Assembly (NCBI GenBank): GCA_029571215.1
Contig: JAKPTE010000001.1
Location: 42,684-106,683 of the forward strand
Length of the DNA: 64,000 bases
Reading direction: 5' to 3'
From: Bacteroidota bacterium
GTDB lineage: Bacteria; Bacteroidota; Bacteroidia; Bacteroidales; JAAYUG01
A program made the position numbers and the translations under genes. The notes under the pieces were generated by a model. It did not search any database, was not told the origin of the DNA, and saw only the letters and a program-made list of their open reading frames with translations. Positions 2,703 through 18,036 of this stretch are shown in pieces (position 1 is the stretch's first letter; each line of letters starts with the position of its first letter).

Positions 2703-5700
2703 TTAATATTCATCCCAGCTTCTGATGGCAATATCTTCCATTTTCAATTTGCAGAAAGCAATGATAAATGCGCTGGCCAGACGGGCATTGGTAATAAGGG
2801 GGATGTTGAAATCGACGGCACTTCTCCGGATCATGTAGTCATTACTGAGTTCGGTCTTGGAGAGGTCTTTGGGAATATTGATTACCAGGTCGATTGTCCG
2901 GCTGCGCAGATAATCAAGCACGTTGGGTTTTTTGTCTTCATCAGGCCAGTGCAGGGCAGTAGCCGGGATTCCGTTCAGTTCCAGGAATTGTTGTGTTCCT
3001 TTTGTGGCAAAAAGGTTATAGCCTTTTTCATAAAGCATCCGGCAGCTGTTGAGCAGTTCGACCTTGGAGCGCATTTCGCCGGTTGACAGGAGAATATTTT
3101 TCTTTGGGATGGTATATCCGACCGAAAGCATGGCTGTAAGAATCGCTTCATAGAAGGTATCGCCAAGGCATCCAACTTCGCCGGTGGAGGCCATGTCAAC
3201 ACCAAGCACCGGATCGGCTTTCTGAAGGCGCGAGAAAGAGAACTGGGGAGCCTTGACTCCGATATAATCTATATCGAATGCTGATTTATGGGGTTTCTCA
3301 ACGGGAAGTCCCAGGAGAATTCGGGTGGCAATGTCAATAAAGTTCACCTTCAGTACTTTGGATACAAAGGGGAAACTGCGGGAAGCACGGAGGTTACATT
3401 CAATAACCTTGATGTCGTTATCCTTAGCCAGAAACTGGATATTGAAGGGGCCGGTAATATCTAATGCTTTGGCAATTTCACGCGTAATGCGTTTGATCCG
3501 GCGCATGGTTTCAAAATATACTTTCTGTGCCGGAAAAACCATGGTAGCATCTCCTGAATGAACTCCTGCAAATTCAACATGTTCGGAGATGGCGTAGGTT
3601 ATCAGCTCACCGTGGCGGGCCACCGCATCAATTTCGATTTCCTTTGCCTGCTGTATAAATTCAGAAACAACCACTGGATATTGTTTGGATACGTTGGCAG
3701 CGAGCTTCAGGAAGTATTCAAGTTCCTCTTTATTGGAAACCACGTTCATAGCTGCACCGGAGAGAACGTACGAAGGGCGGATGAGGACCGGGAATCCGAT
3801 GTCATCGACAAACTGATAGATATCGTTCATGCTGGTAAGCTCCTTCCAGCGGGGTTGATCAATTTTCAATGTGTCAAGGAGGCTGGAGAACTTATGCCTG
3901 TTTTCAGCCTGGTCGATAGAAACCGGAGAAGAACCGAGAACCGGAACCTTCTGCTCGTAAAGGCGCATGGCAAGGTTGTTGGGTATTTGCCCACCCATGG
4001 AAAGGATAACACCTTTCGGAGTCTCCAGTTCAATAATATCCATTACCCGCTCGAACGACAGCTCATCAAAGTAAAGGCGGTCGCAGATATCATAGTCTGT
4101 ACTTACGGTTTCCGGATTGTAGTTAATCATTACCGAACGGTAACCCTGTTGGTTAACCGTTTGAAGTGCGCTGACGCTGCACCAGTCAAATTCGACTGAA
4201 CTGCCGATACGATATGCTCCTGAGCCCAGTACAATAACTGACTTGCCGTCTTTTTCGAAAGGAATATCGTGTTCTTCGCCGCTATAAGTAAGATAGAGAT
4301 AATTGGTTTGGGCAGGGTATTCAGCGGCGAGGGTATCGATTTGTTTAACATACGGAATGATTCCGGCCTTTTTACGGAATTCTCTCACTTTAAGAAGGTT
4401 CTGGTGCATGTCGCTTTTGGAAGAGTGCAACACCGAACGGGCGATCTGAAAATCGCTGAATCCCGCTTTTTTTGCGTCCAATAGCAGGTTAAGTGGTAAT
4501 TCTTCGAGAGAAGAGTATGTTTCAAGTTCCTGTTTGAGATGGAAAATGCGCTGCAGTTTAATGAGGAACCATTTGTCAATTTTCGTCAGATCGTGGATGC
4601 GGTCGATGGAATATCCTTTTTCGAAAGCACTGGCAATAACAAAAATCCGCATGTCGGTTGGTTCCGACAATTCCCTGTCAATATCGTCAAATTCCAGGTC
4701 ACGATTCCCCACAAAGCCATGCATACCCTGCCCGATCATACGGAGCCCTTTTTGAATCGCTTCCTCAAAGGTTTTGCCGATAGCCATCACTTCCCCCACA
4801 CTCTTCATGCTGCTGTTGATGGTTTTGGAAACTCCAATGAATTTATTGAGGTCCCATCTGGGGATTTTGCAAACGATATAGTCAAGGGCTGGTTCGAAAA
4901 AGGCCGTAGTAGTTTTTGTAATGGAGTTTTTCAGTTCATGAAGTCCGTATCCCAGTGCGAGTTTAGCGGCCACAAAGGCCAGGGGATAACCGGTTGCCTT
5001 GGAAGCAAGGGCACTGGAGCGCGACAAACGGGCATTTACTTCAATTACCCTGTAATCTTCACTTTCCGGATCGAGGGCATATTGAACATTGCATTCGCCG
5101 ATAATTCCGATATGGCGTATAATTTTAATGGAAAGCTGACGCAGCTTGTGGTATTCACTGTTGGTAAGGGTCTGGGAAGGAGCCACGACAATGCTTTCAC
5201 CGGTATGGATTCCAAGGGGATCAAAATTCTCCATATTGCACACGGTGATGCAGTTGTCGTACTGATCTCTTACCACTTCGTATTCAATTTCTTTCCACCC
5301 TTTCAATGATTCTTCCACAAGAACCTGAGGAGAATAGGAAAAAGCTTTTGTGACGGTGCGCAGGAGTTCCTCCTCGTCGGAACAAAAACCGCTTCCCTGG
5401 CCTCCCAGAGCATAGGCGGCACGGACAATTACCGGGAATCCCAGCTTTTTTGCAGCGGAAAGGGCATCGTCAATGTTGGTGACAGCTATGCTGCGTGGCG
5501 TTTTGACATCAATTTCATTCAGCCGTTCGACAAATTTCTCCCTGTCTTCTGTATCGATAATAGCCTGAACAGGCGTTCCCAGGACCCTGACCTGGTATTT
5601 TTCCAGAATTTTGTTTTCGTAAAGAGCTACGCCACAATTCAGGGCGGTTTGTCCTCCAAAAGCCAGAAGAATTCCGTCAGGTCTTTCTTTTTCAATTACT

Positions 5701-5954: not shown

Positions 5955-5974
5955 CGAATAAATTTTGTGGAAAA

Positions 5975-6007
5975 TTTGGAATGGAAAGAAAAAATTGCAT
6001 ATATTTG
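5975..6007 (+). promoter_or_regulatory. Bacteroidota sigma-A promoter for the argR operon (TTTG N21 TATATTTG)
   Basis: -33 TTTG at 5975-5978; -7 TATATTTG at 6000-6007. Confidence 0.8.
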
Positions 6008-6032
6008 CAGCACTAATGTATAAATATGCCAT
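5994..6032. promoter_or_regulatory. Tandem ARG boxes (ArgR operator)
   Basis: ATTGCATATATTTGCAGC (5994-6011), 3-bp spacer, AATGTATAAATATGCCAT (6015-6032); canonical geometry, overlapping the argR -7 element. Confidence 0.82.
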
Positions 6033-6507
6033 GCTAAAAACCCGAACACGCCGGCTTATGGAGATCCGGAAACTGATCAGTACCGGTACCATCGGTACCC
6101 AGGAAGAGTTGCTGCAAAAGCTCGAAAAGAAAGGATTCAGGTATACGCAGGCAACTCTTTCGCGGGATTTAAAGTTTCTGAAAGTCGGGCGGAAAGCTGA
6201 CCCGAAAAAGGGCATGGTATATGTTCTTCCGGAAGAAACGGGCTGGAACGAGGTTTTACCGGAAGAAGCCACAGGGAAAAGTGGTTTTATTTCACTGGAG
6301 TTTTCGCATAATCTTGGCGTAATCAAAACCATACCGGGCTTTGCCAGCGGGCTTGCCTATCTGATTGACCACCATCAACCATATGAAGTTCTTGCCACCG
6401 TAGCAGGAGATGATACCATACTGGTAATCGGAAGGGAAGGGGTAAAGAAGAGTGATATTCAGAAGGCTCTGGCATTGATTATTCCGGAAATAGAAAGGAA
6501 ACCTTAG
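6031..6507 (+). CDS. argR: Arginine repressor
   Basis: TQEEL, TQATLSRD winged helix, TVAGDDTI arginine-binding motif; ATG 6031 chosen because it lies downstream of the promoter. Confidence 0.96.
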   Translation: MLKTRTRRLMEIRKLISTGTIGTQEELLQKLEKKGFRYTQATLSRDLKFLKVGRKADPKKGMVYVLPEETGWNEVLPEEATGKSGFISLEFSHNLGVIKTIPGFASGLAYLIDHHQPYEVLATVAGDDTILVIGREGVKKSDIQKALALIIPEIERKP

Positions 6508-6602: not shown

Positions 6603-7844
6603 ATGAAAGAAAAAGTAATACTTGCGTACAGTGGCGGTCTGGATACTTCGGTTATACTGAAGTGGTTGATTGACAAAGGATACGATGTAATCGCCTACAT
6701 TGCTGATGTAGGACAGGAAGATGATTTTGACACAGCCCGTGAAAAGGCTTTGAAAATAGGAGCTTCCAAAGTTTATATTGAGGATCTGAAGGAGGAATTC
6801 GTTACAGATTATATTTTCCCGGCCATCCGTGCCAATGCTGTCTATGAAGGCCGGTATCTTATGGGTACATCGCTGGCCCGGCCTCTGATTGCAAAAAAAC
6901 AGATTGAAATTGCTGAGGCAGAGAAAGCTGCCTATGTGGCCCATGGTGCGACAGGTAAAGGCAATGACCAGGTTCGTTTCGAACTGACCTATTATGCATT
7001 GAATCCCAAAATCAAAGTTCTTTCGCCCTGGAAGACGGCCGAATTTCTTAACGAATTCAAGGGAAGAAGCGATATGATCGCTTATGCACAGGCAAAAGGC
7101 ATACCAGTAAAAGCGACCATCAGCAAACCATACAGTGAGGATGACAACCTGATGCATATCAGCCATGAGGCTGGAATTCTGGAGGATCCGGCCTATAAAC
7201 CGGAGAAGGACATGTTTACCAAAATCGTTCTGCCCCAGAATGCACCTGATAAGGAAACCCATTTGGAAATCCATTTCAAGGACGGAACCCCAGTGAAAGT
7301 GGTAAACACGGATGATGGAACCGTAAAGGAAAAGCCACTGGAACTTTTCATGTACCTGAACAAGCTTGGGTCAGAAAACGGAATCGGATTGCTCGATATG
7401 GTGGAAAACCGGTTTGTGGGTATTAAATCAAGGGGAGTATATGAGACACCCGGGGCTACCATCCTGCATATAGCCCACATGGATATTGAAGGAATTGCCA
7501 TGGACCGTGAAGTTATGCGGCTGCGCAATATGCTGTCTCCGGTTTTTGCCGAAATTGTGTATAACGGATTCTGGTTCAGTCCGGAAATGGATTTTCTGAT
7601 GGCAGCCATAAACAAGAGCCAGGAGGTAATTGACGGGAAAGTGTTTTTAACACTATACAAGGGCAATGTCATAGTTGACGGAAGGGAGTCTCCCAGTTCA
7701 CTTTACAATAAGGAATTGTCCAGCATGGATATTGAAGGAGGTTTCAATCAGATGGACAGTGCCGGTTTTATTAAAATCAATGCTATCCGTCTTATGGCGC
7801 ATCATGCCATTCTGCAGGTCAGAAAGGCCAATGGCAGAATCTGA
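6603..7844 (+). CDS. argG: Argininosuccinate synthase
   Basis: [34 protein letters not shown]. Confidence 0.98.
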
Positions 7845-7888: not shown

Positions 7889-9232
7889 ATGAAACTTTGG
7901 GATAAGGGCATAGCCCTTGAAAAACTCATCGAAACATTTACCATTGGGAAGGACAATGAACTTGACGTAGTTCTTGCACCCTATGATGTTCTTGGAACAA
8001 TAGCCCATATCCGTATGCTGAAGCATATCGGATTGCTGACAGAAACCGAACTGAAGAAACTGGAATATGAACTGATCCGGATTTACAACAAAATCAGGGA
8101 GGGTGAGTTCCGCATTGAAGAAGGAGTAGAGGATGTACACTCCCAGATTGAAATGATTCTTACCGATAGGCTGGGAGACATCGGGAAAAAAGTTCATACG
8201 GGCCGTTCAAGGAATGATCAGGTTCTTGTTGATATCAAGCTGTACATCCGCGATGAAATCAGAGAACTGACAAAGCAGACCCGGTCGCTGTTCGATCTGC
8301 TTCTGAGCCTGAGTGAAAAATACAAGGATGTTCTTCTTCCCGGTTACACTCATTTTCAGATAGCAATGCCTTCCTCATTCGGCTTATGGTTCGGGGCGTA
8401 CGCCGAAAGTCTGACCGATGACATGCAGTTATTACTGGCGGCTTACCGCATTGCCAATCAGAACCCCCTGGGTTCGGCAGCAGGATATGGATCTTCCTTT
8501 CCCCTTGACCGTAAGATGACAACCTCCCTTCTGGGTTTTGATACCCTGAGTTACAACGTTGTGAACGCGCAGATGGCAAGAGGTAAAGTTGAGAAAATTG
8601 TAAGTTTTGCCGTTGGTTCCGTCGCATCTACCCTTGGGCGTCTTGCCATGGATGCTTGTTTATACAGCAGCCAGAACTTTGGTTTTATTTCCTTCCCCGA
8701 TGAGCTCACTACCGGTTCCAGTATTATGCCCCACAAGAAGAATCCAGATGTTTTTGAACTGGTCAGAGCACGATGCAATAAACTTCAGGGAGTGGCCAAT
8801 GATCTGAGCCTGATGCTGGCCAATCTCCCTTCGGGATATCACAGGGATATGCAGGTCACTAAGGAAGTTTTTATGCCCGTTTTCTCTGAAATAAAGGAAT
8901 GCCTTAAAATGACCGAGATGATGCTGGAACATATCAGGGTAAATGAGCACATCCTTGATGATCCGCGATATGATTATCTGTTCAGTGTTGAGGAGGTGAA
9001 CCGGCTGGTTCTGGAAGGAATGCCTTTCAGGGACGCCTATAAAAAGGTTGGGAAGTCCATCGCTGACGGTACTTATAAACATCCGGAAAACATACATCAT
9101 ACCCATGAAGGCAGTATGGGGAACCTTTGCACTGAAGAAATCAGGAAGAAAATGGAAAATATACTGGAATCATTTCACTTCGAGATAATTGACAAGGCAT
9201 ACCAGTGCCTGTTGCAGGAAACATCGATGTAA
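7889..9232 (+). CDS. argH: Argininosuccinate lyase
   Basis: HTGRSRNDQ, PGYTH, GSSIMPHKKNPD. Confidence 0.97.
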   Translation: MKLWDKGIALEKLIETFTIGKDNELDVVLAPYDVLGTIAHIRMLKHIGLLTETELKKLEYELIRIYNKIREGEFRIEEGVEDVHSQIEMILTDRLGDIGKKVHTGRSRNDQVLVDIKLYIRDEIRELTKQTRSLFDLLLSLSEKYKDVLLPGYTHFQIAMPSSFGLWFGAYAESLTDDMQLLLAAYRIANQNPLGSAAGYGSSFPLDRKMTTSLLGFDTLSYNVVNAQMARGKVEKIVSFAVGSVASTLGRLAMDACLYSSQNFGFISFPDELTTGSSIMPHKKNPDVFELVRARCNKLQGVANDLSLMLANLPSGYHRDMQVTKEVFMPVFSEIKECLKMTEMMLEHIRVNEHILDDPRYDYLFSVEEVNRLVLEGMPFRDAYKKVGKSIADGTYKHPENIHHTHEGSMGNLCTEEIRKKMENILESFHFEIIDKAYQCLLQETSM

Positions 9233-9243
9233 TTCTTTGAACC

Positions 9244-9912
9244 ATGCCTGATTCGTTACGCATTGTATTCCGGGTGGAGATTGCCACTTTGCTGAAGGAG
9301 GGACAGCTTGATCTTTCACGGATGGAAAGGGTCTCCATGCTGTGTACCAACCTGATGAACTGCGGCCACAAGGTTGTGTTGGTATCGTCCGGAGCTATTT
9401 TCCTGGGATCGCAGCGTCTGGGAATGGACGGAATTCCCGATACACTGACAGGGAAACAGGCTGCTGCTGCCGTCGGACAGGCTGAACTCATTACCCAGTA
9501 TCAAAATTGTTTTGACGGGTTCAACCAAACAGTGGCCCAGGTGTTACTTACACAGGATGTTCTTGAGAACAGAGTCTGGAGACTGAACGCAGAAAATACG
9601 TTTCGCCGCTTAATGGATAAAGGAATTATTCCCATTGTCAATGAAAATGATTCAGTATCGACTGAAGATATTGAACTGGGCGATAATTATCCGTTGGCGT
9701 TGCAGGTAGCACGAATTGTACATGCTCATATGATTATTCTGCGGCATATATCAGAAGGTACCTATCTGGTCTATACTTATGGCGGCGAAGTTGTTCAGGC
9801 AGGAGAAAATGAAATTTTTGAGACAGCAAAGCGTCTGAAACGTGAAACCGGTTTCATGCAGCGGCCCAAACAGTATTTTCCTGCAGGAGTACCACAGGAT
9901 TATATTTACTAA
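9244..9912 (+). CDS. Glutamate 5-kinase-like protein, degenerate (probable pseudo-kinase)
   Basis: VVLVSSGAI, KQAAAAVGQ, AQVLLT and PIVNENDSV present; VVKxGSS, GDND, SDIDGL and GTGGMxTK absent or altered. Confidence 0.85.
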   Translation: MPDSLRIVFRVEIATLLKEGQLDLSRMERVSMLCTNLMNCGHKVVLVSSGAIFLGSQRLGMDGIPDTLTGKQAAAAVGQAELITQYQNCFDGFNQTVAQVLLTQDVLENRVWRLNAENTFRRLMDKGIIPIVNENDSVSTEDIELGDNYPLALQVARIVHAHMIILRHISEGTYLVYTYGGEVVQAGENEIFETAKRLKRETGFMQRPKQYFPAGVPQDYIY

Positions 9913-9913
9913 G

Positions 9914-10735
9914 ATGGAGGAGATGGATTACAGAGAGTTATTGAAAAACCGGAAGCGCATAGTTGTGAAGATCGGGAGTTCCAGTTTGTCGTATCCTAAT
10001 GGTAAGATTAACTATTCGCGGCTGGAGCAGGTTGCCATAGCGCTGTCAAAACTGCAGTCGGAAGGCCGGCAGATGGTTCTGGTATCCTCGGGTGCCACTG
10101 CCGTAGGAGCCGGGAGAATGGGGATTACCGGAAAGCCTTCAGACAAGGTTGAAAAACAGGCTCTGGCTGCTATCGGACAGGCAGGTCTTATCAAAATATA
10201 CCAGCGGTTTTTTGACCGGCATCATCAGGCTGTAGCGCAGGTATTGCTTACGAAGGATGCCATTACCATTCCGGTTCGCCGCAGAAATGCCCGTAATACA
10301 TTGGACACACTTCTGGGACTGAATGTTATTCCTATTATCAACGAGAATGATACGGTTTCGACGGAACAGATTGAATTCGGGGATAACGATACCCTTTCGG
10401 CCTATGTAGCCGAGCTGATTGATGCGGACCTGCTTATGATACTCAGTGATATAGACGGTTTGTATTCAGGTGATCCTCACAATAATCCGGAAGCAAAGAT
10501 AATCTCGCTTGTTACAGAATTTTCACCATGGCTGGAAAACATTGCCTCAGGGTCTGCCTCTTCGTTTGGCACCGGAGGAATGGTTACCAAGATTATGGCT
10601 GCCCGTATCTGCTGGGAGGCCGGAATTGATGCTGTAATAGCCAGTGGAGAAGACCCTTTTGTGCTTTTTAGATTATTAAAGGGAGAACTACTGGGGACCT
10701 TATTTGCCTTTGGAAGCAGAATGACTGTATGTTAA
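9914..10735 (+). CDS. proB: Glutamate 5-kinase (short form, no PUA domain)
   Basis: RIVVKIGSSS, NENDTV, FGDNDTLSA, SDIDGLY, GTGGMVTK; ATG at 9914 lies 1 bp after the upstream stop. Confidence 0.95.
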   Translation: MEEMDYRELLKNRKRIVVKIGSSSLSYPNGKINYSRLEQVAIALSKLQSEGRQMVLVSSGATAVGAGRMGITGKPSDKVEKQALAAIGQAGLIKIYQRFFDRHHQAVAQVLLTKDAITIPVRRRNARNTLDTLLGLNVIPIINENDTVSTEQIEFGDNDTLSAYVAELIDADLLMILSDIDGLYSGDPHNNPEAKIISLVTEFSPWLENIASGSASSFGTGGMVTKIMAARICWEAGIDAVIASGEDPFVLFRLLKGELLGTLFAFGSRMTVC

Positions 10736-10754: not shown

Positions 10755-12014
10755 ATGGCAGGAAAGATGAACAATCTGGAAGAATATGGGAAAAAAGCAA
10801 AGATTGCGTCGCGGATTCTGGCAGGAATTCCGGTTGACCGGAAAAATGAGGTTTTGAATCAGGCGGCTGATCATTTGATCCGTTACCAGGGAAAAATTCT
10901 TGAAGAAAATAGTAAAGATATCAAAGCGGCGCGCAATGCCGGAGTGAAGGGTGCACTTCTTGATCGTCTGATGCTCAATGAAGGTCGTATTGCTTCCATG
11001 GCCGAGGGGCTGAGGCAAATTGCCATGCTGGAAGATCCGGTGGGGGAAGTACTCTGGATGAAACAAAGGCCGAATGGTTTGTTGATTGGCCAGCAAAGAG
11101 TGCCATTGGGGGTGGTTGGTGTCATCTATGAAGCGCGGCCCAACGTGACGGCCGATGTAGCCGGTCTATGCCTGAAAACAGGAAATGCTGCGATTCTTCG
11201 CGGGGGAAGGGAGGCCATTTTTTCCAATCGGGCCATTGTGGAATGCTTGCAGGATGCCCTGAAAAAGACCGGTTTACCAGAAGACAGTATACAACTGGTT
11301 ACCGATACATCGAGGGAAAGTGCGTTGGCTCTCATGCGGATGAATCAGTACCTTGATGTTCTGATACCGCGTGGAGGAGCCGGTTTAATAAAGTCGGTAG
11401 TGGAAAACAGCACGGTACCGGTTATTGAAACCGGTACGGGAAATTGCCATGTATTTATTGACAGCCCGAGTGACCTCAGGATGGGGATCGATATTATTGT
11501 CAATGCAAAGACACATCGTCCGGGAGTTTGTAATGCTGCCGAAACTCTGTTGGTGCACAAAGATATGGCTGAAATCTTTCTGCCGGAGGCTTGCAGGGCT
11601 TTATCAGAAAGGAATGTGGAAATAAGGGGGGATGAAAAGGTATGTACCCTTGTTCCATACGCAAAGAAAGCAACCGAAGAAGACTGGGCAACTGAATATC
11701 TGGATCTCATTCTGGCTGTGCGTGTTGTGGAGTCAATTGACGAAGCCATTGATCACATTCAGAAATACAGTACCGGTCATTCAGAAGCAATTGTTACGAA
11801 CGATTATTCACATGCCAGAAGATTTTTACAGGAAGTAGATTCGGCCGCTGTATATGTCAATGCTTCCACCCGATTTACCGACGGTTTTGAATTTGGTTTC
11901 GGAGCCGAGGTGGGCATCAGTACTCAGAAACTTCATGCCCGTGGCCCCATGGGGCTAAAGGAATTGACAACCTATAAATACATTGTTTTTGGCAACGGAC
12001 AAATCAGGCAATAA
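10755..12014 (+). CDS. proA: Gamma-glutamyl phosphate reductase
   Basis: YEARPNVT, PGVCNAAETLL, NASTRFTDG, ISTQKLHARGPMGL. Confidence 0.97.
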   Translation: MAGKMNNLEEYGKKAKIASRILAGIPVDRKNEVLNQAADHLIRYQGKILEENSKDIKAARNAGVKGALLDRLMLNEGRIASMAEGLRQIAMLEDPVGEVLWMKQRPNGLLIGQQRVPLGVVGVIYEARPNVTADVAGLCLKTGNAAILRGGREAIFSNRAIVECLQDALKKTGLPEDSIQLVTDTSRESALALMRMNQYLDVLIPRGGAGLIKSVVENSTVPVIETGTGNCHVFIDSPSDLRMGIDIIVNAKTHRPGVCNAAETLLVHKDMAEIFLPEACRALSERNVEIRGDEKVCTLVPYAKKATEEDWATEYLDLILAVRVVESIDEAIDHIQKYSTGHSEAIVTNDYSHARRFLQEVDSAAVYVNASTRFTDGFEFGFGAEVGISTQKLHARGPMGLKELTTYKYIVFGNGQIRQ

Positions 12015-12026
12015 AAATCAGAAACC

Positions 12027-13376
12027 ATGGAATGGATAAATCACCTAACCGGCCTTGTGCAGGATGCCTGCGAAATCGACAAGGAATTATTTACGCGGTA
12101 TCAGGTAAAAAGAGGACTGCGGAATGAAGATCATACCGGAGTTCTGGTAGGACTCACCAATATTGGCGATGTGCAGGGATATGTGAGGGAAGGAGATAAA
12201 ATTATTCCCACCGAGGGCCGGTTATTTTACAGGGGTATCGATGTATATGATCTGGTACATGGTTTTCTGAGTGAAAATCGTCCGGGATTTGACGAAACAG
12301 TTTATCTGCTGCTGACAGGTAAGCTTCCATCAGCCAACGAACTGGAGAAATTCAGTGCGTACCTTGCCGGTCTGAGAGAACTTACACCCATGTTGACCAA
12401 GAGCATGGTACTCTCGCTTCGGGGCAAGGATGTCATGAACATGCTGGCACGGACAGTTCTGGTGCTTTATACCATGGATGATGATCCGGAAGATATGTCG
12501 TTGCAAAATCAACTCAGGCAGGCGCTGAATCTCATTGCTAAGTTCCCGACCATCATCACCTATTCTTATTATGGGATGCTGCATTCCTTTTACAGAAAAT
12601 CTCTGATAATCAGGCATCCTGAAATGCATTTGTCCACTGCAGAGAATTTTCTTCATATGCTCAAGGGGGAAGCTTATACTCCTCTCGAAGCAACCATTCT
12701 TGATCTGGTTCTTGTGTTGCATGCTGAGCATGGAGGGGGAAACAATTCCACCTTTACAACCCGTGTGGTTAGTTCAAGCGGTACAGACACCTATTCGGCC
12801 ATTGCAGCAGCTATAGGAAGCCTGAAGGGAAACTTGCACGGAGGGGCAAATCTTAAAGTAATGGATATGATGGACCATTTGAAGGAAAACATTCGCGACT
12901 GGAACGATGATGAGGAAATCGCAGCATACCTTCTAAAAATGCTCAGGGGAGAAGCCTTTGATCGTTCGGGAAAAATCTACGGGATGGGGCATGCTGTATA
13001 TACCCTGTCGGATCCGCGTGCTGTGCTTCTGAAGGAAAAGGCAAAAGACCTTGCTGCTGAAAAGAACCGTACCGAGGAATACAACCTGTACGAAAACATT
13101 GAACGTCTTGTTCCACAGGTGTTTGAGAAGCATAAGGGGGCCGGAGCAAAAATTATCAGTCCCAATGTTGATTTCTATTCAGGTTTTGTGTACGATTGCA
13201 TCCGTATACCCAGAGAAATTTATACCCCGTTGTTTGCAGCGGCCCGCATTGCAGGCTGGTGTGCTCACAGGCTGGAGGAAATAACTTTCTCTTCCAGGAG
13301 GATCATCAGGCCGGCCTACAAAAATGTCTGTCCAAAAGCCCAGTACGTTCCCATCAGTCAGCGCAAGGATGCTTGA
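12027..13376 (+). CDS. gltA: Citrate synthase
   Basis: HAEHGGGNNST, LHGGAN, GMGHAVY, PNVDFYSG; N-terminal VKRGLRN type. Confidence 0.92.
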   Translation: MEWINHLTGLVQDACEIDKELFTRYQVKRGLRNEDHTGVLVGLTNIGDVQGYVREGDKIIPTEGRLFYRGIDVYDLVHGFLSENRPGFDETVYLLLTGKLPSANELEKFSAYLAGLRELTPMLTKSMVLSLRGKDVMNMLARTVLVLYTMDDDPEDMSLQNQLRQALNLIAKFPTIITYSYYGMLHSFYRKSLIIRHPEMHLSTAENFLHMLKGEAYTPLEATILDLVLVLHAEHGGGNNSTFTTRVVSSSGTDTYSAIAAAIGSLKGNLHGGANLKVMDMMDHLKENIRDWNDDEEIAAYLLKMLRGEAFDRSGKIYGMGHAVYTLSDPRAVLLKEKAKDLAAEKNRTEEYNLYENIERLVPQVFEKHKGAGAKIISPNVDFYSGFVYDCIRIPREIYTPLFAAARIAGWCAHRLEEITFSSRRIIRPAYKNVCPKAQYVPISQRKDA

Positions 13377-13441: not shown

Positions 13442-13506
13442 TTGCGGAGGCATATGGCAGAAAGTAAGCCTGTGCCCATTGTGAAACAAACTAATATGAA
13501 TTGATT

Positions 13507-16500
13507 ATGTGGAAAGGCTTACCAGATAAAAGCGGGCTTTACAATCCGGAAAATGAACATGACAGTTGCGGCATAGGCTTTGTAGCCCATATCAAGGGAC
13601 AGAAATCAGGAGAAATAATACGCCGCGGACTGGAGGTATTATTGAATATGAGTCATCGTGGTGCAGAGAGTGCTGACAATACCACAGGTGACGGAGCGGG
13701 CATTACTATTCAGATACCGCACAGATTTCTTGTTTCGAAGGGTATTTCTCTTCCGGAACCCGGTGAATATGGAACCGGCATTGTTTTCTTTCCACCCGAT
13801 GAAAAGGAGAGAAAAGCAATCGAACAGTGGTTTTACCGTACAGCGGAAGAGGAAAATCTTACAATACCTGCTTTCAGGGATGTTCCTGTGAACAGCAGTG
13901 TTCTGGGAGAAATTGCCCGCCGGAGTGAACCGGTAATCCGCCAGGTGTTTCTTACGGGAGATTATGAACAGGATGAACTGGAGCGCAAGCTCTACATTTT
14001 CCGGAAGAGAATTGAGAACGAAGTCAGGAATTCGGGCCTCAGCCAAAGTAGTTACTTTTATATCAACAGCCTTTCCACACGAACAATTGTTTACAAGGGG
14101 CTATTCACTCCGGTGCAGTTGAAAGAATATTATCCCGATCTGTCCGATCCGGCAATGGAAAGTGCAATAGCGCTGATTCATTCGCGTTTCAGTACCAATA
14201 CTTTTCCGACCTGGGATCTGGCGCAGCCCTTCCGGTATCTTTCGCACAACGGGGAAATCAATACCATCAAGGGGAACAGGCTTTGGATGAAAGCCAGGGA
14301 AGCTTTGCTTCAGAGCCAGTTGTTCGGAAAGGATCTTGAAAAGTTGTTCCCGGTTATTGAGCCCGGGAAAAGCGATTCGGCTTCTCTGGATAACGTTTTT
14401 GAGTTTCTGGTAATGACGGGGAGATCGATGCCCCATGCCATTACTATGCTCGTGCCGGAATCGTTTAATGACCGGAACCCCATTCCCAACAGTCTAAAGG
14501 CCTATTATGAATATCATTCCATGATTATGGAACCATGGGATGGTCCAGCTTCCCTCGTTTTTACCGATGGCAGATACGTGGGTGGTACTCTTGACAGAAA
14601 CGGCTTACGACCTTCCCGCTATGTTATTACCGATGACGATCTCATAGTAATGGGTTCTGAAGTAGGTGTTCAGAAATTTTCTGCTGAAAAAATCCGCGAA
14701 AAAGGCCGTCTGCGCCCGGGAAAAATTTTGCTGGTTGACACCAAACTAGGAATTATTATTCCTGATAATGAGATTAAGAGTCAGCTTTCCCGCCAGAATC
14801 CATATGGAAACTGGTTGAAGGAGAACAGGCTTGAACTGGAAAAGATAGAAGTCAAACAACGTATTCCTTCTACCATTGACCAGTATGAAACCTATCTCAG
14901 GATTTTTGGTTATACCAAAGATGATCTTGATATGGTATTCAAGCCAATGGCTCTGGAAGGGAAAGAGCCTGTCGGAAGCATGGGGAATGATACTCCACCT
15001 GCCGTTTTGTCAAAAAAACCTCAGCGACTTTTCAGTTACTTCAAGCAGCATTTTGCCCAGGTAACTAATCCTCCCATTGATCCGATCAGGGAGGGATTGG
15101 TTATGTCGCTTACGAATTACATCGGAGCCCTGCAGACGAATCTTCTGGAAGAAAATCCTGCCATGTGCAAGCTTATCCGTTTCCAGAGTCCTATTATTAT
15201 CAACACCGATCTGGGAAAGATTAAAAGTTTGCAGCGGGAGGAATTTTCGAATATCACCATCAATATGGTTTTTGATGCCAATGGTGGGGGAAAGGCGCTT
15301 CAGGAGGCACTTGACCGGATTTGCCGTGAAGCAGAGCAGGCGGTTGACAATAAAATCAATTATCTCATTCTCTCCGACAGGGCTGTTGACAAGGATCATG
15401 CACCGATCCCCTCTTTACTAGCTGTTTCAACCCTTCATCATTATCTGATCGGTGTGAAGAAGCGGATGCAGATAGGGTTTATTGTTGAAACAGCAGAAGC
15501 CCGGGAAGTGATGCATTTTGCCCTTCTCCTCGGATACGGAGCCAGTGTAATCAATCCGTATATGGCATTTGCCGTGCTTGATGATATGTGTAAGAAGGGA
15601 GAAATCACACTGGATTACAAAATTGCCCGGCAGAACTATATTAAGGCTATTGATAATGGTCTGCTGAAGATCATGTCAAAAATGGGGATCTCAACATTGC
15701 GAAGTTACCATGGTTCCCAGATTTTTGAAGCCATTGGACTCAGCAATGAAATTGTTGAGAAATATTTTAATGGAACACCATCAAATATCGGAGGTATTGG
15801 CCTGGAAGAAATTGCCGAGGAGGCTCTTATTCCGCACAGGGAAGCTTTCAGGCTGGCACCGGTGAAAGAAGTTTATCCCAAAACCGTTGGAATCTATCAC
15901 TGGAGAAAAGACGGGGAATTTCATGGATGGAATCCAGAAACCATTGCTCTTCTGCAGTGGGCAACAAAGACAAATAATTACGAGAAATTCAGGGAGTTCA
16001 GTAACCTGGTAAATTCGCAGAACCGCGAGCCAAACTTTTTGAGAGGGCTGCTGAATTATAAAAAGAATCCGATTCCTCTTGAAGAAGTTGAGCCCGAAGA
16101 AAACATCATGAAACGCTTTGTAACCGGTGCCATGTCGTATGGGTCCATCAGCAAGGAAGCCCATGAAGCCCTGGCCAGAGCAATGAATTCCATTGGAGGC
16201 CGAAGCAATACAGGGGAAGGGGGAGAAGATGCGGAACGGTTCAAGCCCCTGCCAGATGGTACGCTTATTCGGAGTGCGATCAAGCAGGTTGCTTCCGGGA
16301 GGTTTGGTGTTACTACCAATTATCTGGTGAATGCTGACGAATTGCAAATAAAGATGGCCCAGGGGGCGAAGCCGGGTGAAGGTGGACAATTACCTGGCTA
16401 TAAGGTTGATAAAATAATTGCGCGCCTGCGGCATTCCACACCGGGAATTACCTTGATTTCGCCGCCACCGCATCATGATATTTATTCGATTGAAGACCTT

Positions 16501-18036
16501 GCCCAGCTGATTTTTGACCTGAAATGCGTCAATCCGACGGCCAAAATCAGTGTCAAGCTGGTTTCGGAGCATGGTGTAGGTACTGTTGCAGCCGGCGTAG
16601 CCAAAGCACGTGCTGATCTGATCACTATCAGCGGGAACGAAGGTGGAACCGGTGCCAGTCCGGTAAGCTCCATCAAGCATGCCGGATTACCTATCGAACT
16701 GGGTATTTCGGAAGCTCACCAGACCCTTGTGAAGAACAATCTGCGCGGGCGGGTGCGGCTGCAAACTGACGGGCAGCTGAAAACGGGTCTTGACGTGGTT
16801 CTTATGGGTATTCTGGGAGCAGAAGAGTTTGGATTTGCCACGGCTGCTTTGGTTACTCTTGGTTGTATTCTCATGAGGAAATGCCACCTGAATACCTGCC
16901 CGGTAGGGGTTGCCACCCAGAACCCGGAATTACGTAAACGGTTCATCGGTCGATCGGAGTATGTTGTCAATTATTTCCGGTTTCTGGCAAGAGAGGTGCG
17001 GGAAATAATGGCAGAAATGGGAATCCGCAAATTTGATGATCTGGTGGGCAGGACGGATTTACTGGAACAGCGCACAGATATCGACCACTGGAAGGCCCGT
17101 ACCGTTGATCTTTCGCGGATACTTCACAAACCGAAAGAGGCTGAAAAATTTCCCTTGCATCAGGTAACACATCAGATCCATCCTATTGATGAGATTCTGG
17201 ACCGGGAACTTGTTAAATTGGCCGGAAAAGCGTTGAAAAACAAGGAAAAAGTCTGGATATCTAGAACGATTAATAATACTGATCGTGCCGTCGGAGCCAT
17301 GCTTTCCGGAGAAGTTGCACGCCGTTACGGAGAATTCGGACTTCCTGACAATACCATCAATGCCCGGTTCTATGGCTCAGCGGGTCAGAGCTTTGGGGCT
17401 TTTCTTGCCGGAGGGATTAGTTTCACACTGGAAGGTGATGCCAATGATTATCTTGGGAAAGGACTTTCAGGAGGACGGATTATAGTGGTTCCTCCTGCAG
17501 GAAGCAGGTTTGTCCCTGAAGAGAATATTATTATCGGAAATACCGTACTGTATGGAGCTACCAGCGGGGAATTGTATGTGAGGGGAATAGCGGGTGAACG
17601 ATTTGCCGTGCGTAATAGCGGGGCTTTTGCCGTTGTGGAAGGAGTAGGTGATCATGGGTGTGAGTACATGACCGGTGGCCGCGTGGTTGTGTTGGGACCT
17701 ACCGGGAGAAACTTTGCCGCTGGTATGTCAGGGGGAATTGCCTATGTTCTGAACCGGAACGGAAACTTTGAATATTTCTGCAACAAAGGCCTGGTTGAAT
17801 TATCCCCGCTGGAAGATCGCAGCGATATTCTCGAGGTACAGATGATGCTGAACAACCATCTGTTGTATACGGGAAGCCGGGTTGCAGAGAACATTCTTTC
17901 GAACTGGGATGAGTACCTGCCAATGTTTGTCAAGGTCATTCCCATGGAATACAGGAAGGTTCTTGAAGAGCAGAAATTGGAGGCATTACGTAGGAAACTG
18001 GAGGCAACAGAAGATTCACCCCAGTATCATTATTGA
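13507..18036 (+). CDS. gltB: Glutamate synthase large subunit
   Basis: EHDSCGIGF, HSRFSTNT, QGAKPGEGGQLPG, CHLNTCPVG, GXGXG C-terminal domain. Confidence 0.98.
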   Translation: MWKGLPDKSGLYNPENEHDSCGIGFVAHIKGQKSGEIIRRGLEVLLNMSHRGAESADNTTGDGAGITIQIPHRFLVSKGISLPEPGEYGTGIVFFPPDEKERKAIEQWFYRTAEEENLTIPAFRDVPVNSSVLGEIARRSEPVIRQVFLTGDYEQDELERKLYIFRKRIENEVRNSGLSQSSYFYINSLSTRTIVYKGLFTPVQLKEYYPDLSDPAMESAIALIHSRFSTNTFPTWDLAQPFRYLSHNGEINTIKGNRLWMKAREALLQSQLFGKDLEKLFPVIEPGKSDSASLDNVFEFLVMTGRSMPHAITMLVPESFNDRNPIPNSLKAYYEYHSMIMEPWDGPASLVFTDGRYVGGTLDRNGLRPSRYVITDDDLIVMGSEVGVQKFSAEKIREKGRLRPGKILLVDTKLGIIIPDNEIKSQLSRQNPYGNWLKENRLELEKIEVKQRIPSTIDQYETYLRIFGYTKDDLDMVFKPMALEGKEPVGSMGNDTPPAVLSKKPQRLFSYFKQHFAQVTNPPIDPIREGLVMSLTNYIGALQTNLLEENPAMCKLIRFQSPIIINTDLGKIKSLQREEFSNITINMVFDANGGGKALQEALDRICREAEQAVDNKINYLILSDRAVDKDHAPIPSLLAVSTLHHYLIGVKKRMQIGFIVETAEAREVMHFALLLGYGASVINPYMAFAVLDDMCKKGEITLDYKIARQNYIKAIDNGLLKIMSKMGISTLRSYHGSQIFEAIGLSNEIVEKYFNGTPSNIGGIGLEEIAEEALIPHREAFRLAPVKEVYPKTVGIYHWRKDGEFHGWNPETIALLQWATKTNNYEKFREFSNLVNSQNREPNFLRGLLNYKKNPIPLEEVEPEENIMKRFVTGAMSYGSISKEAHEALARAMNSIGGRSNTGEGGEDAERFKPLPDGTLIRSAIKQVASGRFGVTTNYLVNADELQIKMAQGAKPGEGGQLPGYKVDKIIARLRHSTPGITLISPPPHHDIYSIEDLAQLIFDLKCVNPTAKISVKLVSEHGVGTVAAGVAKARADLITISGNEGGTGASPVSSIKHAGLPIELGISEAHQTLVKNNLRGRVRLQTDGQLKTGLDVVLMGILGAEEFGFATAALVTLGCILMRKCHLNTCPVGVATQNPELRKRFIGRSEYVVNYFRFLAREVREIMAEMGIRKFDDLVGRTDLLEQRTDIDHWKARTVDLSRILHKPKEAEKFPLHQVTHQIHPIDEILDRELVKLAGKALKNKEKVWISRTINNTDRAVGAMLSGEVARRYGEFGLPDNTINARFYGSAGQSFGAFLAGGISFTLEGDANDYLGKGLSGGRIIVVPPAGSRFVPEENIIIGNTVLYGATSGELYVRGIAGERFAVRNSGAFAVVEGVGDHGCEYMTGGRVVVLGPTGRNFAAGMSGGIAYVLNRNGNFEYFCNKGLVELSPLEDRSDILEVQMMLNNHLLYTGSRVAENILSNWDEYLPMFVKVIPMEYRKVLEEQKLEALRRKLEATEDSPQYHY

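Follow-up and report, generated by a model that had tools for sequence, protein, structure and literature searches.

A conserved, non-catalytic-looking paralogue of glutamate 5-kinase encoded in tandem with ProB in an arginine-proline gene cluster

In an arginine gene cluster of a Bacteroidota bacterium, the gene for an intact glutamate 5-kinase (G5K), proB, is preceded by a second, shorter reading frame that is clearly related to it and that we refer to as proB'. This arrangement raises the question as to whether proB' is a duplicate that is decaying beside its working copy, or whether it encodes a conserved protein with a role of its own, and if so, what that role might be. The DNA that was analyzed (the window) is a stretch of 64,000 nt from assembly GCA_029571215.1, contig JAKPTE010000001.1, positions 42,684 to 106,683 of the forward strand; the features of the locus are collected in Table 1.

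Table 1. Genes of the arginine-proline cluster, with positions in the window
Feature	Position	Strand	Basis or remark
argR (arginine repressor)	5965-6507	+	PF01316 and PF02863; heads the conserved cluster
argG (argininosuccinate synthase)	6603-7844	+	ORF translation and synteny
argH (argininosuccinate lyase)	7889-9232	+	PF00206 (Lyase_1), E 6.7e-50
proB' (truncated, non-catalytic-looking glutamate 5-kinase paralogue, 222 aa)	9244-9912	+	ORF, BLASTP, PF00696, TIGR01027
proB (intact PUA-less glutamate 5-kinase, 273 aa)	9914-10735	+	PF00696, TIGR01027
proA (glutamate-5-semialdehyde dehydrogenase-like, 419 aa)	10755-12014	+	PF00171 (Aldedh), E 9.9e-22
citrate synthase	12027-13376	+	downstream of proA
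glutamate synthase large subunit (1511 aa)	13501-18036	+	3' of citrate synthase

The proB' reading frame is intact, as an initial annotation made from the letters of this DNA had stated. It begins 11 nt after the end of argH, which is its conserved upstream neighbor, and it closes with a TAA stop (9910-9912) that is separated by a single base from an ATG at 9914. The initial annotation had placed the stop 1 bp before the proB start codon, which holds if that ATG is used, but proB has an alternative in-frame ATG at 9923 (MDYREL...), and because orthologues align from there, the gap between the two genes is either 1 or 10 nt. In related loci, the gene at the argG position matches PF00764 and PF20979.

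Anatomy of ProB' and its residue conservation

ProB' and the adjacent ProB share 44% identity over 170 aa (BLASTP, E 1e-43), and the similarity stops at ProB' residue 174. ProB matches the full PF00696 (AA_kinase) profile with 151.8 bits and scores 311.5 bits against TIGR01027, above the cut-off of 186; it matches the structure 4q1t (phmmer, E 5.5e-64), and the residues of its catalytic motifs (K19, G21, D159, G221, G222, and K226) are invariant in the ProB family alignment. AA_kinase is the only Pfam domain that it contains, in agreement with the initial annotation's description of it as PUA-less. ProB' also exceeds the PF00696 cut-off of 24.9 bits, with 52 bits, in a partial match spanning profile positions 17 to 171 of 234; its TIGR01027 score of 170 bits lies under the 186-bit cut-off and covers positions 2 to 163 of 363 only.

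Alignment of the two proteins bears out the motif differences that had been read from the letters. Where ProB reads VVKIGSS and GDNDTL, ProB' reads VFRVEIA and GDNYPL, respectively; ProB' has nothing that aligns with SDIDGLY or GTGGMVTK; and the motifs SSGA, KQ..AAVGQ, AQVLLT, NEND, and GDN are all retained. The C-lobe is indeed shortened, with ∼48 residues standing for ∼89 in the adjacent ProB, and ∼55 for ∼100 in the comparison with G5K. ProB' can thus be laid out as an N-lobe (residues 1 to ∼166), a mini C-lobe (∼167 to 200), and a tail with a conserved F212-P213, the only conserved element of the C-terminal ∼55 residues.

The changes extend to the whole family of short proteins, which we defined as 74 proteins of 200 to 255 aa among the best 120 database matches together with the window protein (75 in all); three further matches, two of them fragments and the third (P0074, 261 aa) chimera-like, were left unclassed. 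Numbering of E. coli G5K was transferred by a phmmer alignment to 2j5t, and we take K10, D150, D170, and K217 of that enzyme to have catalytic roles. The roles of individual E. coli G5K residues are absent from PMC6099280, and PMC8963878 provides a general domain description only. All 75 short proteins have K/R-x-E-[IFL] replacing K-x-G-S/T-S (R-V-E-I-A in the window protein), such that the G12 position is Glu in 75/75, versus Gly in all 44 canonical PUA-less ProBs. Similarly, the D150 position is Tyr in 75/75 versus Asp in 44/44, and the D170 position, which is assigned only approximately, is occupied by 18 different residues in the short family versus Asp in every canonical protein. ATP and phosphoryl-transfer elements are therefore absent across the short family, by residue counts and by alignment, as had been proposed for the window protein. 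The inclusion of K10 among the lost residues was overstated, however, as this position is Arg in ProB', Lys in 54 and Arg in 21 of the 75 short proteins, and Lys in 44/44 canonical ones; it is conservatively kept, and the true loss is next to it, in the G-S/T-S loop, where Gly is changed to Glu.

The amino acid site is kept, as the initial annotation had it: S50, N134, D137, D148, and N149 are identical in 75/75 short proteins, and the same positions are conserved among the 44 canonical PUA-less ProBs, with D148 being Asp in 37 and Glu in 7. An alignment of 61 ProB' members has 32 invariant columns, almost all of them in the N-lobe, and outside of it P213 is Pro in 74/75 members of the short family and variable in canonical PUA-less ProBs. 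Judged by these substitutions, ProB' is not expected to phosphorylate glutamate.

A second set of 24 ProB' proteins, drawn from genomes by profile match independently of the database matches, shows both the constancy of this pattern and where it varies. The N-Y and NEND motifs are present in 24/24, Glu is at position 12 in 21/24, and the Lys position is K or R in 18/24; the remaining six, all basal members, have E, M, D, S, N, or A there. These six also have Ala in place of S50, three of them have S, N, or G at position 12, and D148 is replaced by Asn in four. Because N-Y is present in 24/24 despite the basal variation, loss of the phosphoryl site is universal in the ProB' family, and K/R-x-E-I is what its main clade has settled on. 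The unclassed P0074 combines a ProB'-type N-terminus (KVEI) with a ProB-type C-terminus (…GTLF), which may reflect either recombination between the two tandem genes or an error of assembly.

An AlphaFold2 model of ProB' built on the 61-sequence alignment (pLDDT 90.6, pTM 0.89) contains the whole N-lobe; three short strands and one helix (residues 163 to 200) take the place of the ATP lobe, and the tail has no regular secondary structure. Foldseek gives the G5Ks of E. coli, Burkholderia, and Campylobacter as its top PDB matches, at E values of ∼1e-16 to 1e-13 with TMq of ∼0.70 over ∼160 to 173 aligned columns (E. coli G5K: E 4e-16, TMq 0.70). Chains of G5K, UMP kinase, and aspartokinase are all matched with a Foldseek probability of 1.00, but the matches to kinase-fold proteins other than G5K are far weaker. 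ProB' thus belongs to the amino acid kinase fold both by PF00696 score and by Foldseek; in the ESM Atlas, the exact ProB' sequence is present but has no usable neighbor.

Compared with G5K/ProB itself (EC 2.7.2.11; PF00696; TIGR01027), ProB' has the same fold and the same N-lobe, is 34 to 41% identical over ∼160 to 173 residues to the enzymes of solved structure (2J5T and 8ZPJ from E. coli, 4Q1T from Burkholderia, and 2AKO from Campylobacter), and retains all of the glutamate/proline-pocket motifs. Unlike G5K, it lacks the K-x-G-S/T-S loop, the catalytic Asp, and the ATP-binding C-lobe with SDIDGLY..DP and GTGGMxTK, and it falls under the TIGR01027 cut-off. Because it departs from G5K in these four defining features, ProB' should not carry a G5K annotation. 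Database records label ProB' proteins either 'glutamate 5-kinase' or 'hypothetical protein', the former of which is probably wrong functionally.

Distribution, selection, and origin

A ProB' family profile was searched against 401 genomes sampled across the window's order, with ProB' recognized as an ORF of no more than 252 aa whose profile coverage extends to at least position 199 of 224. Among the matches listed, ProB' is found in 27/401 genomes belonging to 13 families, with 17 weaker matches besides. All 27 carriers have a PUA-less ProB, the only kind with which ProB' co-occurs in the sample, and in 24 of them proB' immediately precedes proB in the same orientation, such that the tandem, which the initial annotation had proposed to look for among homologues, is indeed conserved; across the 14 loci compared, the intergenic distance is between -4 and 33 nt. 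Three carriers are assemblies of one to three contigs, which argues against an assembly artifact. Among the matches listed, 16 other sampled genomes have a high-scoring PUA-less ProB without ProB', approximately 95 of the 401 have only a PUA-containing ProB (355 to 420 aa), and 262 have no match.

In the remaining three carriers, all from one family, proB' is not linked to proB, which is either 36 kb away or on another contig. In two loci of this family, L141 (G294:C2, 6588-7250) and L143 (G180:C32, 6711-7370), the unlinked proB' sits beside a gene for a 7TM receptor with an HD hydrolase domain (7TM-HD), and proB adjoins a Peptidase_C26/GATase gene. No other ProB' copies diverge as far as these, which have D or N in place of the Lys and ENNY for GDNY. 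In another genome (G343:C5:45920-46576), one in-frame TGA was flagged near the ProB' match; the 221-aa ORF is intact, and the TGA therefore sits upstream of its start.

A phylum-wide sample of 400 other genomes, seven of them from the window's order, gave no ProB'-like match at E ≤ 1e-50, and, as far as the sampled genomes go, the family thus seems to be limited to this order. The named records with a proB'-proB tandem are 'Bacteroidales bacterium' metagenome-assembled genomes (MAGs). A contig-level locus search with the ProB' alignment found the tandem in just two of the 80 loci kept (L022 and L023, both from Bacteroidales MAGs); because one of the two search patterns, PxxNENDxV, is common to ordinary ProBs, the other 78 are canonical Clostridia-type and other ProBs. 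No ProB'-ProB fusion was found among longer database proteins, among which the best matches, covering no more than 78% of the query, proved to be ordinary G5Ks with a PUA domain, often from fungi.

We measured dN/dS by the Nei-Gojobori method for three same-genus pairs and one pair in another family. For the same-genus pairs, ProB' gives 0.086, 0.055, and 0.075, versus 0.060, 0.041, and 0.048 for the adjacent proB, and for the pair in the other family the values are 0.026 and 0.020, respectively. Values for proB' are thus well below 1, the limit that the initial annotation had set, and close to those of proB. Within ProB', the N-lobe (0.01 to 0.05) and the C-terminal tail (0.07 to 0.21) are both constrained. 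With the family-wide motif pattern and the conserved tandem, these values describe a selectively degenerated paralogue, as was first suspected, and not a decaying gene.

The origin of ProB' was examined in a quick maximum-likelihood tree of 83 sequences, comprising 24 ProB', 23 partner ProBs, 7 solo ProBs (PUA-less ProBs from genomes without ProB'), 19 further PUA-less ProBs (mostly from Clostridia), and 10 PUA-type ProBs as the outgroup. All 24 ProB' proteins form one clade (SH-aLRT 100, stem 1.16) nested inside the PUA-less ProBs, which points to a single origin of ProB' from a PUA-less ProB; the sister group is not pinned down by the tree, and one sequence (G367) is on a very long branch. 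ProB' subclades mirror those of the partner ProBs (for example, G011 with G272, G014 with G275, and G000 to G002 with G004), and pairwise distances of ProB' and partner ProB correlate with r = 0.84 across 23 genomes, although ProB' evolves faster (mean p-distance 0.57 vs 0.42). A correlation of this kind would be expected from co-inheritance, and is by itself no proof of binding. We note that solo PUA-less proB also directly follows argH, in six of the seven loci examined, and the events are therefore most simply explained by proB having been duplicated in tandem, with the new copy lying between argH and proB and the upstream copy then losing its kinase machinery.

ProB' thus has the properties of a dead paralogue: duplication from an active enzyme, loss of catalytic residues, and purifying selection. 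It is a real, conserved pseudoenzyme family within a known fold, and one that is apparently undescribed. The initial annotation knew of no described example, and in our search of full texts, largely from outside the subscription journals, truncated or inactive paralogues of ProB were likewise not described. ProB' would add a clear case of a pseudoenzyme of the amino acid kinase fold, a stand-alone dead twin retaining only the substrate half, and its conservation spans 13 or more families of a single order, including organisms of sludge- and digester-type habitats.

Operon context and arginine-pathway content

Thirteen tandem loci were fetched with 14-kb flanks, and in 10 of them the gene order is argR-argG-argH-proB'-proB-proA, as in the window. 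One of the other three reads valS-proB'-proB-proA, and two are without adjacent proA or arg genes; overall, proA follows proB in 11/13 loci and the argR position is kept in 10/13. Citrate synthase follows proA in eight related loci and gltB is present in one, and the cluster groups supply of 2-oxoglutarate and glutamate with proline and arginine synthesis. In one of the 10 loci (L133, G351:C1), proC (P5C reductase) is inserted between argG and argH at 4174-4977, forming a combined arg/pro operon.

Contigs assembled from RNA libraries (Logan; two studies) match this part of the window at 98 to 99%, with one bridging the argH/proB' junction (9109-9537) and two bridging the proB'/proB junction (9622-9978 and 9683-9977). 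The matches have small word shares (0.05 to 0.19), and the parts of the stretch that they leave uncovered carry no meaning. Because DNA may be present in RNA libraries, and a contig is no proof of one continuous transcript, they are only a weak hint of cotranscription.

The carriers have an unusual complement of arginine genes. In five carrier genomes searched, four of which are 93 to 99% complete, argB (TIGR00761) and argC (TIGR01850) are both under cut-off, and both are detected in Bacteroides thetaiotaomicron as a control. Across the sample, argB is over cut-off in none of the 27 carriers, versus 115/374 other genomes of the order (115/401 overall), and it is found in 4 of the 16 genomes with a solo PUA-less ProB and in none of the other 12. 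A canonical ornithine carbamoyltransferase (OTC) is encoded in 5/5 carriers searched, adjoining carbamate kinase in the window's genome, where there is also a gene for an ornithine-oxo-acid transaminase (699 bits; cut-off 378). Ornithine aminotransferase (OAT) is present in 27/27 carriers and in 302/401 genomes overall (75%). The association of ProB' with the lack of argB is not independent evidence, as the carriers cluster in the phylogeny, 5 of the 27 genomes fall short of 90% completeness, and OAT is widespread in the order anyway.

Taken together, the lack of argB and argC and the presence of OAT, OTC, ArgG, and ArgH suggest a nonacetylated route from glutamate to ornithine and arginine, with ProB and ProA probably feeding arginine as well as proline. 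Glutamate semialdehyde from ProB-ProA would probably be transaminated to ornithine and converted onward to arginine, such that one kinase serves two end products. If carriers do make ornithine through ProB-ProA and OAT, as they appear to, automated pathway tools would score an arginine gap in them. In the available parts of GapMind and of a gut-microbiome reconstruction paper, there is no mention of a ProB twin or of a ProB-based arginine route.

Possible roles of ProB'

The reading that we favor, with a probability of about 0.55, is that ProB' is a conserved noncatalytic G5K paralogue, a pseudoenzyme, with a putative amino acid ligand and a putative role as a noncatalytic subunit alongside ProB. 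In outline, proB' arose once, in one lineage of the order, when proB was duplicated in tandem within an argH-proB-proA cluster, and the upstream copy then lost its kinase machinery: the phosphate-binding loop was replaced, with Gly becoming Glu, the catalytic Asp became Tyr, and the ATP-binding C-lobe was reduced to a stub of ∼55 residues that ends in the Phe-Pro tail. The N-lobe, which keeps a complete glutamate/proline-type pocket, would bind glutamate, proline, or a related amino acid, and through the same conserved lobe ProB' would associate with ProB, perhaps tuning the activity or feedback of the first committed step as a regulatory or stabilizing subunit. That one ProB-ProA pair would supply both proline and arginine offers a reason for an extra control element, and a regulatory subunit, as the initial annotation proposed, seems plausible. 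Its further suggestion that ProB' helps to channel glutamyl phosphate to ProA is weakened, and is less attractive, in light of Newton et al.

A more specific form of this proposal has ProB' as the subunit that senses arginine or ornithine in a hetero-oligomeric glutamate kinase, which with ProA, OAT, and OTC would replace ArgB and ArgC in a nonacetylated arginine pathway of many Bacteroidales. We consider this a rather unlikely refinement. If true, the dead twin would allow one kinase to answer to both proline and arginine, and would explain both the position of the pair in an ArgR-headed argG-argH operon and the absence of argB from carriers. We note that ProB' is evidently dispensable for PUA-less ProBs as such, given the sampled genomes in which these occur without it.

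How do other explanations compare? The least probable by far is that proB' represents either a recently duplicated gene that is decaying neutrally (an unprocessed pseudogene whose frame happens to be open) or an assembly artifact, for which the truncated C-lobe and the TIGR01027 score under cut-off could be cited. The initial annotation had regarded a gene unique to this genome and decaying neutrally as counting against its own proposal; what we find instead is a gene present in 27 genomes of 13 families, with dN/dS of 0.03 to 0.09, a single clade of 24 members, 32 invariant columns in 61 sequences, a confidently predicted fold, and occurrence in closed or near-closed assemblies. Conservation, distribution, dN/dS, and the single clade rule out both the pseudogene and the artifact. 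A free-standing amino-acid-binding protein is a more serious contender, either a sensor or buffer acting on some other partner (such as ProA, OAT, ArgR, or a membrane receptor) or one that sequesters its ligand. The ligand pocket is, after all, the best-conserved part of ProB', PUA-less ProB does without it in the 16 solo genomes, and in the one family of 3/27 carriers where proB' has left proB it lies beside a 7TM-HD receptor gene. We nonetheless think this unlikely, as 24/27 carriers hold proB' within a few bases of proB and the subclades of the two match. Moreover, amino-acid-kinase-fold enzymes of the G5K family oligomerize through the N-lobe, which is exactly what ProB' retains.

The conserved K/R at the K10 position and the invariant Glu and Tyr could also reflect a new catalytic or binding function instead of simple inactivation. 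ProB' would then be an enzyme with ATP-independent chemistry, using Glu12 and Tyr149 as catalytic residues and acting on glutamyl phosphate, GSA/P5C, or 5-oxoproline. Fixation of both residues (75/75 each in the short family, and 21/24 and 24/24, respectively, in the genomic set), dN/dS as low as that of a working enzyme, and the Phe-Pro tail (P213 in 74/75) would all be accommodated. We find it quite doubtful, because basal members exchange Glu12 for Ser, Asn, or Gly and the Lys for six different residues, a variation more in keeping with a site that was lost than with a precisely built new one; in addition, Pfam and NCBIfam give no other family for ProB', and literature searches provided no precedent. 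A noncatalytic subunit working with ProB thus remains the reading that we prefer.

There are informative parallels for such a subunit. N-acetylglutamate synthase (NAGS) has a catalytically inactive kinase-fold domain, and the yeast enzyme forms a complex with N-acetylglutamate kinase (NAGK). ProB' resembles this system in being a dead kinase-fold module, putatively for ligand sensing and oligomerization, next to a working kinase that shares its fold, the NAGS system belonging to the neighboring glutamate-to-ornithine pathway. The NAGS domain differs in being fused to a GNAT acetyltransferase and derived from NAGK, whereas ProB' is a stand-alone protein of 222 aa with PF00696 only and is derived from G5K. 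HisZ, which acts with short-form HisG, and the AdoMetDC 'prozyme' of trypanosomatids are dead-paralogue regulatory subunits, and the likeness here is that an inactive paralogue is encoded next to, or partnered with, a catalytic protein that lacks a regulatory domain of its own, as ProB lacks PUA. The complex and the regulatory effect are proven for HisZ and the prozyme, and putative for ProB'. HisZ also differs in descent, since it and HisG belong to separate enzyme families; ProB' and its presumed partner are paralogues. ProB' and ProB would provide a direct handle on how dead paralogues regulate live ones in bacterial amino acid synthesis.
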